In this document: one piece after another, positions 1 through 39,572 of the stretch
Layout: every line of letters starts with the position of its first letter
Position numbering within the stretch: the stretch's first letter is position 1
Assembly: GCA_964430075.1 (NCBI GenBank)
Contig: CAYSFP010000008.1
Location: forward strand, 145 to 64,144
Source of the DNA: an uncultured Planctomycetaceae bacterium
GTDB lineage: Bacteria > Planctomycetota > Planctomycetia > Pirellulales > Lacipirellulaceae
DNA length: 64,000 nt
Direction: 5' to 3'
Position numbers and translations under genes: made by a program
Notes under the pieces: generated by a model
Told to the model about the DNA's origin: nothing
Databases searched by the model: none
What the model saw: the letters and a program-made list of their open reading frames with translations, nothing else

Positions 1-11
1 CGCAACGTCGA

Positions 12-141
12 AAAAGTGGACAAAATGGACGCCCAAACGGGTGGCTCCCCTTTCACAACCCCTTGCCAGATCAGCATTTGCAAAACGCGCTGTCCGCTGT
101 CCTGTCCCAAACGCGTTTCCCGCGCACTCCGAAGTGTCCAG
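12..141 (+). repeat. TGTCC/GGACA-box dispersed element, copy 1 (truncated by window start)
   Basis: Blocks aaaagtggacaaa (12-24), caaccccttgcc (56-67), ctgtccgctgtcctgtccca (90-109) and tccgaagtgtccag (128-141) recur reverse-complemented at 36544-36673 with identical spacing. Confidence 0.85.
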
Positions 142-153
142 TTCCCCTCCGCC

Positions 154-230
154 GCTACACCCGCAGCAGTTCCAGCGGCGACTGCCAGAACAGCCGCGGC
201 GCAAATACGGCCGCCAGGTCCCCGGCAAGC
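154..230 (-). repeat. Duplicate of the 3' end of the GNAT gene
   Basis: 154-201 is identical to 1574-1621 (48 bp). The minus strand reads ...DLAAVFAPRLFWQSPLELLRV*, versus ...ALAAVFPPRLFWQSPLELLRV* in the intact gene. An in-frame stop lies upstream, near 333. Confidence 0.9.
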
Positions 231-1574: not shown

Positions 1575-2996
1575 CTACACCCGCAGCAGTTCCAGCGGCG
1601 ACTGCCAGAACAGCCGCGGCGGAAACACGGCGGCGAGCGCTTCGGCGACTCGCTCGGAAGAAACCTGCAGCCGCCCGGCCGTCAGCGCTGCCGGGATCGA
1701 CAAGTTGCTCAACAGCAGCGAGTCCATGATCGGCCGCGCACAGGCGACCCAATCTGCCGGCAGCTCCGCGACCCGCTCCAGCCGCGCGCTGCGGCGCGTG
1801 AGCGTGAACCGGTAGCGATCCTCGCCAAGGTCGAAGCCCAATTCCCATGGCCGCGCGATCCCCGCCGCCCGGGCCCGCTCGTGCCACGCCGGATAGAACC
1901 GTTCGGTCCACTTTTCGGGCGCGAGCAATTTCGCCATCCATCGCGCTCGCCCCGCGCCAGCATCGCTGATCCACTGCCCCCCAGCGGTCACGAGCAGTTC
2001 ATGCAGCGGGTCGCTCGCCGGCGTGAACAGCGAGATCGAGTTGTGATCGCGATCCATCGCGTCCTGGCACGCCCGTGCCAAGAGCTGCGTCTGCGCGGCG
2101 GCGAACTCCTCCAGCGTCGCCATCTCGATGATGCACGAGCCGCGGACCACGGCGTAGCCGACGACCTTGCCGCATGCGTGGACGTCATCAGGCGGCAGAT
2201 CGTTGCCGCCGGCGGCGCGATCCTCCACCGCCAGCAGGATTTGATCCTGCGCCTTGCGCCCAATCAGCCATTGCCACCCCAACTCGGAGCGGAGCAGCGG
2301 CCCCCACTGGTCGACGGCAAACAAATGGTAGAGCGAGCGAACTGCATCAAGCTCGAAATGCCGCCAGGTACGGACGGTCAGCGGCGTCCTTTTAAGCCGC
2401 CGCCGCGCTGCGTCCTGCGCATCGAGGTGCGCGAGCACGGCGCGTGCATTGGCCCGCGTGTGACCCTGGCCGCGCAGCAGGCTCCAGCCCCGCCGGGCGA
2501 AAAACTCGGGCGTCTCGGCATGCACGATGCCGACGACGGCGCCCTCGCCCGCGGCGATGTCCTCGGCAGAGTCGAGCAAGCGTTCGCCATAGCCCGCCGA
2601 GCTGAACTCCGGCAGCGCGGCAAAGTCCTGCAGCTTCACCACCGGCACGCGCTGCCCCTCGAACCACGCGATGTGGTCCGCGACATGCACATGCGCCACC
2701 AGGTCGCGCTCGCGGCGCACCAGCAGCCGATCGCTGGGCCGGTAGCTCGGCTCGTCGAGCCGGCTCTGAAAATCCTCGCCGAGGGCGGCGTGCCGCGTTT
2801 CGACCAGCAGCTTCAAGACCAGGGGATGATCGCCAGCATTGCCGGCAACGATGCGAACGCCGTCGCCCAGCACCTGCACGCAGGCGGCGTCAGCGCAGCC
2901 GTAGACGTGAGCCGACGACGAACCATTCCCCGCGCCAGCATGCTGGCGAGAACGTCCGCCGGTCGGCCCCTGGCTCCATTCCGTAGGGGCGGACAT
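1575..2996 (-). CDS. Eis-like GNAT family N-acetyltransferase
   Basis: GNAT motif A-like segment DFAALPEFSSAGYGERLL, then PEFFARRGW, a second GNAT-like repeat and an SCP2-like C-terminus. Confidence 0.75.
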   Translation of the reverse strand: MSAPTEWSQGPTGGRSRQHAGAGNGSSSAHVYGCADAACVQVLGDGVRIVAGNAGDHPLVLKLLVETRHAALGEDFQSRLDEPSYRPSDRLLVRRERDLVAHVHVADHIAWFEGQRVPVVKLQDFAALPEFSSAGYGERLLDSAEDIAAGEGAVVGIVHAETPEFFARRGWSLLRGQGHTRANARAVLAHLDAQDAARRRLKRTPLTVRTWRHFELDAVRSLYHLFAVDQWGPLLRSELGWQWLIGRKAQDQILLAVEDRAAGGNDLPPDDVHACGKVVGYAVVRGSCIIEMATLEEFAAAQTQLLARACQDAMDRDHNSISLFTPASDPLHELLVTAGGQWISDAGAGRARWMAKLLAPEKWTERFYPAWHERARAAGIARPWELGFDLGEDRYRFTLTRRSARLERVAELPADWVACARPIMDSLLLSNLSIPAALTAGRLQVSSERVAEALAAVFPPRLFWQSPLELLRV

Positions 2997-36493: not shown

Positions 36494-36543
36494 TTCTCTT
36501 ACGGGGATCTGTCGTCGCAGGGGCTTGGGGGGAACACGGTGAG

Positions 36544-36816
36544 CTGGACACTTCGGACCGCTGCAACATCATGCGTGGGACAGGACAGCGGACAGGCGAT
36601 CGCGGAAAGGACGACGCGGCAACGGGTTGCGGCTCCTTGATCCCTCTGGAGGGTGGCCACTTTGTCCACTTTTGGCGGATTTGGTTGCGCATGGCGGTCA
36701 AGGGGGTGGGGAGTCGGGGGGGGGCAGGAGTCAGGGTTCAGGAGGCAGACCATTGCTTATTGGCCACGGACTACTGTCCTTTAGTACACTACACCACTGC
36801 GCGGCCTGATTTCAAG
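36544..36816 (-). repeat. TGTCC/GGACA-box dispersed element, copy 2 (with promoter-like block)
   Basis: Four blocks match copy 1 in exact register (paired coordinates sum to 36685). 36596-36745 and 36775-36816 also match copy 3. Confidence 0.85.
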
Positions 36817-38992: not shown

Positions 38993-39213
38993 ATGTCCTG
39001 CGCGTTCCTGGTCGCTGCGACGCCGCCTGCCTTCGTACGGCGCCGGGGCAAGTGATTGCACTTCAGGGCGGCATGGCCGGGCCTGACCACGGGGCGTGCG
39101 CGGGGCTCGTCGCCTTGTCAGGCCTGCTCTCGCCGGCGTGATTGCTACATTCCGCACGCCGCGCGCGTCGCCGTTCCGCCTCGCTGCGCACGTGAAAGCA
39201 TGATTTGCGCGAA

Positions 39214-39572
39214 GCGATTGCGGAAAGGACGACGCGATCACGGGTTGCCGCTTCTCGACCGCTCTGAATAGCGTCTATTTTGTCCACTTTTGGCGGATTT
39301 GGTTGCGCAGGGCGGTCAAGGGCGGCGAAGCATAGGTCGGAGGCAGGAATACAAGGTTCAGGAGTTGGGAGTCAGTCGGGGGCGGCGTTCGACTGCCCGC
39401 TGCGGACGGCCGCCCCTGCTCTACGGCCTGCCCAGAAATTCGGCTAAACCGCAAGCGTTGGTCCGTCCCGTTCGACTGGTTTGCTGAGCTGGCGTCTTGA
39501 CTGGCATTTCTGGGCAAAGCCCTGCGATTCTGTCAATTTGTACACTCATCGATGGCGCGGCCTAGTTTCAAC
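39214..39572 (-). repeat. TGTCC/GGACA-box dispersed element, copy 3 (partial)
   Basis: 39214-39365 aligns to 36596-36745 (offset 2618 over the first ~100 bp). 39531-39572 matches 36775-36816 at 30/42 ungapped. Confidence 0.8.

Follow-up and report, generated by a model that had tools for sequence, protein, structure and literature searches.

A dispersed non-coding repeat family confined to one Lacipirellula species carries GGACA boxes in fixed register and is linked to a promoter-like module

Background

Interspersed non-coding repeats are common in bacteria, most of them being palindromic, selfish and poorly understood. The BOX elements of Streptococcus pneumoniae are modular interspersed repeats (boxA-boxB-boxC) and the ERIC/IRU sequences are similar; both BOX and ERIC are imperfect palindromes for which a stable RNA fold is predicted, and both can alter the expression of neighbouring genes. 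The Correia elements of Neisseria (NEMIS/CREE) display 26-nt terminal inverted repeats, a TA target duplication and many near-identical copies. A different type of organisation is found in Tn3 res, the lambda attP arm sites and the Tn7 and Mu ends, which span 120-240 bp, comprise 5-7 copies of a short word in both orientations, and occur once or twice per element, beside a recombinase or transposase gene.

In this work, we focused on an element of ~170 nt, hereafter called E, from a draft genome of Lacipirellula. E resembles BOX and ERIC in being dispersed, intergenic and non-coding, with a length of 100-200 nt and a copy number in the tens to hundreds; like them, it has a modular build, is limited to a narrow lineage, lacks a transposase of its own and may influence the expression of adjacent genes. 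It differs from them in that it gives no fold signal, keeps invariant words in fixed register between decayed spacers and has a promoter-like module upstream. With Correia elements it shares the format of a short interspersed repeat that brings promoter activity (predicted for E) and a protein-binding site (IHF in Correia, putative in E) and that may insert between the genes of an operon, as at locus C168. Unlike Correia elements, E has neither terminal inverted repeats nor near-identical copies, and its flanks, whose orthologous gaps are too diverged for exact junctions, show no target duplication. REP/REPIN sequences and their RAYT genes occur in the same genome as E and have intergenic 'landing zones' and a strand bias in common with it, whereas E is not palindromic, does not lie on both sides of RAYT genes and is unrelated in sequence. 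As in the res, attP, Tn7 and Mu scaffolds, spacing and helical phase appear to outweigh spacer sequence, E differing from these by its 46 occurrences and by having no such enzyme gene nearby. On sequence grounds, E probably represents a previously undescribed family of bacterial interspersed non-coding repeats, with a scaffold-like architecture and a BOX/ERIC/Correia-like distribution. It is distinctive in that old copies retain 53 positions together with their spacing, in that it travels with a promoter-like module and in that it occurs in one species of a little-studied phylum.

Methods

The window is the stretch of 64,000 nt that was analysed (contig C8:145-64144); the host assembly is a 6.11-Mb draft Lacipirellula genome in 343 contigs (C1, C2, etc.). 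A flanking protein assigns this genome to Lacipirellula (Lacipirellulaceae, Pirellulales); among the relatives, G004 is L. limnantheis I41. Copies of E were searched for in the whole genome by BLASTN and iterated nhmmer. Those covering at least 150 of the 177 model positions were classified as full and the remaining ones as fragments. Promoter-like modules (P) were identified by profile and pattern scoring and by inspection of C98, C168, C21 and C7. Separations between boxes were counted on the consensus. Gene order at C168, C7 and C93 was compared in 3-4 other Lacipirellula genomes; two-sided synteny was absent in relatives for the C98, C88, C40, C1, C15, C31 and C46 loci.

Results and discussion

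Copies of E in the window and in the genome

The preliminary description of the window proposed three copies of a dispersed non-coding element. All three are real and belong to a family of 46 genome-wide, i.e. 38 full and 8 partial copies, with nhmmer E-values from 6.5e-42 to 3.4e-5. Since several copies lie within 120-320 nt of contig ends, the assembly breaks around the units and 46 is a lower bound.

E is built in the order CCCTTGACCGCCGTGCGCA, GTGGACAAAGTGGAC, TGTCCTGTCC, CGAAGTGTCCA, its conservation starting sharply at CCCTTGAC and ending at GAAGTGTCCA (GTGTCCA). In the consensus, block 1 (CCCTTGACCGCCGTGCGCAC) is followed by a spacer of ~12 nt, then by the A boxes (AAAGTGGACAAAGTGGAC) and by ~65 nt with a weak AAC(C/T)CnTTGC..TTyCC core; next come B1 (TGTCC(G/A)C), B2-B3 (the TGTCCTGTCC block), a spacer of ~24 nt and the 3' terminal box B4 (CCGAAGTGTCCA). 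The six boxes are one and the same word, N(T/G)GGACA, present in both orientations, two forward and four inverted. Out of 41 occurrences of TGTCCTGTCC in the genome, 37 fall within E; the TGTCC/GGACA pentamer itself is under-represented genome-wide (7649 observed vs ~12,900 expected from base composition).

Copy 1 (window 1..144, + strand) is the 3' 144 nt of a 172-nt copy that was recovered by nhmmer (C8:117-288, E=1.6e-34), by the covariance model and by alignment; its first 28 nt (C8:117-144), including the invariant 5' block CCCTTGAC..GTGCGCA, lie outside the window. Its A boxes (16..30, +; GTGGACAAAATGGAC) comprise two direct GGAC(A) sites 9 nt apart, in columns at least 90 % conserved in the 38 full copies. 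Boxes B1-B3 (91..107, +; TGTCCGCTGTCCTGTCC) are inverted with respect to the A boxes, and family conservation stops at B4, the 3' terminal block (131..140, +; GAAGTGTCCA). Copy 2 is full-length (36541..36712, - strand; C8:36856-36685, E=1.3e-40), with block 1 at 36704-36686, A boxes at 36669-36655, B1-B3 at 36594-36578 and GAAGTGTCCA at 36554-36545. Copy 3 (39211..39325, -; C8:39469-39355, E=1.1e-20) is truncated: alignment assigns it model positions 10-124, i.e. the 5' two-thirds, so that block 1 and the A boxes are retained, the copy ending immediately ahead of the TGTCC boxes, none of which is present. With E-values of about 1e-40, 2e-34 and 1e-20, the window copies are far beyond chance.

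The gapless pairing claimed for copies 1 and 2 was recovered, window 1-160 (+) aligning with 36685-36525 (-) with no gap over ~150 nt, and so were its four matching blocks: AAAAGTGGACAAA (12-24, 13/13 identical), CAACCCcTTGCC (56-67, 11/12, one mismatch), CTGTCCGCTGTCCTGTCCCA (90-109, 20/20) and TCCGAAGTGTCCAG (128-141, 14/14). The placement of both copies just past a stop codon held in part. Copy 2 does lie 47 nt from the stop codon of a convergent 383-aa gene; the 'stop' located 13 nt from copy 1 belongs to a duplicated gene-end remnant of 47-48 nt and not to an intact gene. Since only about 12-13 of 35 E copies face a convergent gene end genome-wide, such a placement is no rule.

The remnant is one half of an exact direct repeat of 47-48 nt (window 154-201 = 1574-1621), the other half being the 3' end of a 473-aa gene at 1575-2996 (-). 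As the distal gene-end repeat abuts copy 1, E appears to have been separated from the gene end by an insertion of ~1.4 kb. On the other side of this copy, C8:1-54 is identical to C193:10364-10417 in reverse orientation and forms an assembly-graph branch point ~60 nt upstream of E; the end of C232 carries the same flank, and repeats upstream of E break the assembly.

The non-coding nature of E was borne out. All copies are intergenic, between called genes, the four apparent overlaps being ORFs whose first in-frame start codon falls within E. A protein-coding origin was discarded because indels do not come in multiples of three: 55 one-nucleotide indels and ten 10-nt deletions are found in the 38 full copies, with no reading frame.

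Old copies retain the boxes and their spacing

Conservation reaches at least 90 % in 53 alignment columns of the 38 full copies. Mean pairwise identity is 96.8 % in these columns and 48.2 % in the other 121, for which 28 % is expected at random. Each copy is 66-85 % identical to its nearest relative (median 74 %), and no pair exceeds 85 %. Resident copies are old and diverged, yet all retain the same 53 box positions and spacing. The lack of recent copies, together with the lack of any full copy without boxes, is hard to explain by bursts from a few master copies. Because the copies are not recent and the boxes are nevertheless intact in all 38, the pattern argues for purifying selection acting on resident copies.

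Distances between boxes are equally constrained: 33-34 nt from TTGAC to the A box in 25 copies (23 nt in 7 others), 81-83 nt from the A box to TGTCCTGTCC in 32 of the 38 and 33-35 nt from TGTCCTGTCC to AAGTGTCCA in 30. Spacing is constant to ±1 nt and larger indels are only of 9-10 nt, which gives a bimodal spectrum (1 nt, 55 cases; 2 nt, two; 3-8 nt, none; 9 nt, one; 10-nt deletions in ten copies). Indels of 9-10 nt affect 11 copies at three places and correspond to about three events, i.e. a 10-nt deletion between block 1 and the A boxes common to 8 copies, another after the A boxes common to 2 copies, and the 9-nt loss of one tandem A-box unit. The two independent 10-nt deletions, each amounting to one helical turn, suggest that DNA helical phase is conserved, a phasing which rests on these two events. 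Separations of 73, 85 and 117 bp (~7, 8 and 11 turns) between A1, B1, B3 and B4, as counted on the consensus, would place these boxes on roughly one helix face. The strict register of the boxes amid decaying spacers, already pointed out in the preliminary description, is thus confirmed and fits a phased multi-site protein-binding scaffold.

E is not a stably folded RNA

The alternative put forward alongside such a scaffold, a structured RNA, did not hold. RNAalifold proposed only 7 pairs, all in invariant boxes, at -3.7 kcal/mol and with 0 compensatory changes. Relative to dinucleotide shuffles, the mean MFE z-score was -0.33 on the forward and -0.14 on the reverse strand, only 1-2 of the 38 copies falling below -2. 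Single-sequence folds of the central region gave hairpins in about half of the copies, in no common register. The RNAalifold and z-score results do not support a stably folded RNA, and E is not one. A single word in two orientations is the simplest expectation for one protein on double-stranded DNA.

The same data set E apart from several described classes. Membership of the REP/REPIN class was rejected, as there is neither a hairpin-forming palindrome (z-scores as above) nor a covarying consensus helix, and a structured non-coding RNA in general was rejected for want of compensatory changes. A relic of an IS200/IS605 element (PATE or omega-RNA) was discarded too, given the lack of fold signal and of conserved end hairpins. 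As for Rfam structured families, no covariance model matched E: in a search of the window with Rfam 15, only a tRNA reached its gathering score, and five E loci searched at E-values up to 5 gave no match on the element, in line with the view that the family is undescribed.

E is the 3' module of a larger unit with a promoter-like module

What had escaped the preliminary description is that E is the 3' module of a larger unit which begins with a promoter-like module. Upstream flanks of E carry other repeats at variable offsets and downstream flanks have nothing in common, so that a larger shared element was rejected. The most consistent upstream repeat, P, is sigma70-like. Its -35 element reads T(T/A)GAAA and is separated by a spacer of 17-18 nt, which includes a conserved (A)GGCCGCGC (in the form GAAAYYAGGCCRCGC..TGGTAGGGTACAT, or TAGTATACA), from an extended -10 (TGG-TAGGGT, TAGTGT, TAGTAT or TATACA) that is followed by AC(A). 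The distance of P upstream of E ranges from 50 to 450 nt, and P is always directed at E; it is present at no fewer than 24 of the 38 full copies, and four more copies are cut by contig ends ~116-122 nt upstream. There are ~40 P sites genome-wide (e.g. C66:19341-19370, C67:12595-12624, C160:3743-3772 and two in the window), about half of which precede E, the rest preceding other repeats or genes. In the window, P of copy 2 (36786..36815, -; TTGAAAtcaGGCCGCGCagtggtgTAGTGT then AC) is directed at E from 74 nt upstream, and P of copy 3 (39542..39571, -; TTGAAActaGGCCGCGCcatcgatGAGTGT then AC) lies ~217 nt upstream, with a leader containing ..CGCTTGCGGTTTAGCC.. in between.

At the simplest loci (C168, C7, C98 and C21:1016), P is followed by ~25 nt, a leader CCGCTTGCGG(Y)TTAGC, i.e. 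a CCG-CUUG-CGG-type hairpin motif, a C-rich run and E, for a total of ~270-300 nt. At other loci, the interval from P to E also houses a long hairpin repeat, a 31-nt palindrome or heptad runs. An internal sigma70, sigma54 or ECF promoter within E was rejected, no conserved -10 or -24/-12 being visible by eye on either strand; the sole match in a promoter scan of E uses a non-conserved hexamer. No terminator was found after E.

The unit was gained in one lineage

An exact three-block pattern of E matched 29 sites in its own genome and none in 40 relatives (13 of the same genus), the same pattern read backwards giving 0 matches. A sequence-only covariance model yielded 46 matches in the genome and 0 in relatives. 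An occurrence in other Planctomycetota was not borne out by these scans of relatives or by a scan across species. A looser pattern had no match in one genome for each of 185,579 species and, in JGI metagenome contigs, a single chance match in an AT-rich coding region, which the covariance model rejects. Nothing was found in the literature on such an element in Planctomycetes. P is likewise confined to this genome among 14 genomes of the genus. With its ~46 copies, E is a dispersed non-coding family that occurs in this species alone and goes together with a promoter-like module.

Three loci allowed a comparison with orthologous gaps, which are ~180-500 nt shorter in the other genomes. At C168, the P-E unit fills the 308 nt that separate a gene for a small membrane protein from one for an ABC ATPase; this gene pair is adjacent in four other Lacipirellula genomes, with gaps ~180-270 nt shorter, of unrelated sequence and free of E. 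For the divergent pair at C7, the gap is of 628 nt here vs ~170-260 nt in relatives without E, and for the one at C93 of 854 nt vs ~350-600 nt. This Lacipirellula lineage acquired the P-E unit at numerous intergenic sites. Flanks of E contain no conserved or duplicated short word, the orthologous gaps being too diverged for exact junctions to be placed.

Gene context and strand polarity

The nearest downstream gene is co-directional for ~22 copies, usually 2-300 nt away, and convergent for 12-13 copies, at 47-334 nt. Genes downstream of E (ndk, an aminotransferase, an ECF sigma factor, GlgX, an ABC ATPase, RtcB, PQQ enzymes and PEP-CTERM proteins) have no common function, and no gene family recurs within 3 kb of the copies; the possible linkage with integrase or HTH genes was not found for the same reason. 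A regulon promoter was rejected because the downstream genes are unrelated and 12-13 are convergent. A tRNA linkage was rejected too, no tRNA lying near any copy.

The sense strand of E, in the direction from P to E, is the locally C-rich strand in 32 of 38 copies. The composition of the unit itself accounts for part of this polarity (skew of -0.2 to -0.35 from -120 to +200). When ±1 kb was removed and an absolute skew of at least 0.02 was required, 20 of 24 copies still lay on the C-rich strand (p=0.0015), and P modules without E followed the same trend (12/15). Genes for tRNA are biased in the same way (49/74 on the locally C-rich strand; p=0.007) and protein genes show no bias (50.5 %). Such a skew-linked orientation, as for tRNA genes, suggests that the unit behaves like a transcribed gene with selected orientation or like a strand-specifically inserted element, the polarity being measured against local skew.

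A proposed phased DNA array downstream of a promoter-like module

The explanation that we favour, tentatively and as something a little short of probable, is that E is the conserved end module of a lineage-specific promoter-bearing repeat and functions at the DNA level, a putative protein binding to its phased array of six GGACA sites. The basic unit would comprise P, the short leader with its CCG-CUUG-CGG-type motif, the C-rich run and E. E itself would be a double-stranded DNA array in which two N(T/G)GGACA sites run forward and four are inverted, the TTGAC..GTGCGCAC block being a seventh element. One putative sequence-specific protein may assemble cooperatively on this array, roughly on one helix face, and the complex, just downstream of P, could serve as an operator or a roadblock that would gate the entry of P-driven transcription into the adjacent gene or, where genes converge, into the 3' end of the facing one. 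The fixed register and the use of one word in both orientations fit binding to double-stranded DNA. For the 12-13 copies that face a convergent gene, there is no obvious gene to control.

No candidate binding protein emerged, and no additional GGACA cluster marks a regulator gene; an autoregulated gene for the binding protein was rejected, since box combinations outside E are chance coding matches or E remnants. Box A1 matches the high-GC DnaA box, which we take to be TTGTCCACA, at 8 of 9 positions, and two genes with a DnaA C-terminal domain are present in the genome (C14 and C79). A DnaA-box cluster was nevertheless rejected, as TTGTCCACA shows no enrichment and boxes of this kind form no cluster around either dnaA-like gene; the match of A1 is at most a lead. 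By eye, GTGCGCA was considered as a candidate dif/Xer-like half-site.

If E is indeed a binding array, it offers ~40 natural replicates of one regulatory architecture; a promoter-bearing module would be rewiring many unrelated genes, e.g. by splitting an operon at C168, and a new DNA- or RNA-binding factor would be indicated in Planctomycetota.

A possible role at the RNA level

The main rival explanation, which we consider possible although doubtful, is that E acts as RNA. P would then drive a C-rich, largely unstructured transcript of ~230-600 nt. E would form either the 3' part of this transcript, the copies making up a family of small RNAs, or a module of its 5' leader. The GGACA/UGUCC words would be bound by an RNA-binding protein or would pair with one another or with targets, with effects on Rho loading, stability or translation of the gene downstream. 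Transcription of E is suggested by its own promoter-like module, the leader motif, the C-rich sense strand and the tRNA-like orientation, and these make an RNA-level role possible. In particular, the unit includes a strong promoter-like module, in every case oriented towards E; the conserved leader motif could form a CUUG-loop hairpin; the sense strand from -120 to +200 is C-rich and G-poor as in rut sites; the orientation bias equals that of tRNA genes; and 22 copies lie within 2-300 nt upstream of a co-directional gene. Against this, folding energies are no lower than those of shuffles on either strand, RNAalifold finds no covarying pair and no terminator follows E. Moreover, spacing held to ±1 nt with jumps of 10 nt is unexpected for an unstructured RNA platform, two complementary words would need two modes of recognition, and the downstream genes are functionally unrelated.

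A more ambitious proposal, which we hold to be rather unlikely, is that P, leader and E together form a domesticated lineage-specific system of at least ~40 sites, each with six in-phase GGACA words under selection on which one and the same higher-order nucleoprotein complex, with a putative protein partner, would assemble. It might function genome-wide as a polar insulator, roadblock or chromosome organiser, or as a multi-copy non-coding RNA family with internal boxes; the sites are co-oriented with tRNA genes and with GC skew.

An improbable alternative, a selfish mobile element

That the unit is purely a selfish, non-autonomous mobile element appears improbable. The boxes would then be sites of the Tn7/Mu-end or res/att type, served in trans by a transposase or recombinase, and their conservation would reflect the needs of mobilisation and not a host function. 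The unit does occur only in this species and is absent from orthologous gaps of relatives; truncated copies have common breakpoints at model positions 124-128; subfamilies exist, e.g. several copies with a common 10-nt deletion; and the orientation is biased with respect to GC skew, as in single-stranded DNA transposons. On the other hand, terminal inverted repeats, end hairpins and detectable target duplication are lacking, no transposase or integrase gene recurs beside the copies, and boxes intact in all 38 copies, no two of which exceed 85 % identity, require selection on resident copies. The age of the copies, the integrity of their boxes and the lack of terminal repeats and of a partner enzyme disfavour this explanation. 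Should E prove to be nothing more than selfish, it would be a new repeat family at which assemblies of this genome break.

Candidate enzymes were surveyed in the genome. The 5' end (CCCTTGACCGCC) and the 3' end (GAAGTGTCCAG) of E are unrelated in the 38 aligned copies, so that a MITE with terminal inverted repeats was rejected; a parent IS was also rejected, given that no gene family recurs, that rve genes lie on contigs without E and that Y1 genes have other repeats. The idea that E might be the ends of a known IS failed in the same way, the three rve-type matches all being on contigs devoid of E. The genome contains 7 strong Y1_Tnp genes (RAYT-like, ~150 aa; e.g. C21:1485-1940, C2:99129-99473, C4:61801-62142, C38:34681-35025, C67:7082-7420 and C306:170-508), for 7-10 Y1/RAYT genes in all. 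Two of the 7, those at C21 and C2, are accompanied by one E copy each, within ~0.5-1 kb and on a single side (estimated chance of ~0.007 for two of seven within ~1 kb), which speaks for mobilisation; against it, each of these genes has REPIN-type inverted repeats of its own on either side (e.g. CCACGGGTTGCGC..GTAGCCACGGGTGGAGCG), unrelated to E.

The reverse strand

It is very unlikely that the functional strand is the G-rich reverse one, with four GGACA words and flanking GGA-rich heptads, acting either as an RNA that titrates CsrA or as an element in the 3'-UTR of convergent genes. In its favour, 7 CsrA paralogues occur in the genome, the reverse strand of E and of its flanks is dense in GGA words (e.g. 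at the C98 locus) and 12-13 copies lie 47-334 nt past a convergent stop codon, but P is directed the other way, no promoter is conserved on that side (the sole scan match has a non-conserved -10), the GGA sites are not in hairpin loops and give no fold signal, and CsrA genes (PF02599) are equally numerous in relatives without E (5-9 in every Lacipirellula genome searched). A CsrB/RsmZ-type sponge was also rejected for the P-driven strand, which has only two GGA words and no hairpins, as was a CsrA expansion, 7 paralogues being typical of the genus.

Other repeats observed around the units

Several further repeats were encountered. After some P modules, a leader of ~100 nt (GGCTTTGCACCTAAAT..CCGCTTGCGGCTTAGCGCGCATTGAGGTGCAAAGCC) with a long closing stem has no Rfam match (C82:22380-22480, C21:29740-29860, C107, C5:59830-59950 and window ~39400-39520, -). 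The long hairpin repeat often nested between P and E is ~200 nt long (CCGCAGAGnGCGGAGGACGCAGAG...AACCGCTGATCAACGCT... and complement) and was found at C160:3780-3980, C293, C183, C31, C232, C66, C67 and C19; unlike E and P, it is also present in a sister species (relative G009, locus L015). The 31-nt palindrome TTATGTCGCcAAAAAcgttgTTTcGCGACAAAA, which resembles an operator or a REP, occupies dozens of intergenic sites (e.g. C293:3646, C232:907, C31:18393, C19, C34, C47, C131 and C312). Heptad runs, i.e. (GTTAGCC)x7, (GCATCCN)n and CCTGAAC/CCTGACT, were seen at C48:26092-26200 and C98:9282-9360 and upstream of many start codons (C88:15560-15600 and C19). Finally, a CCTCCTGAACCC(C/T)GA motif often stands immediately before start codons, in place of a Shine-Dalgarno sequence.
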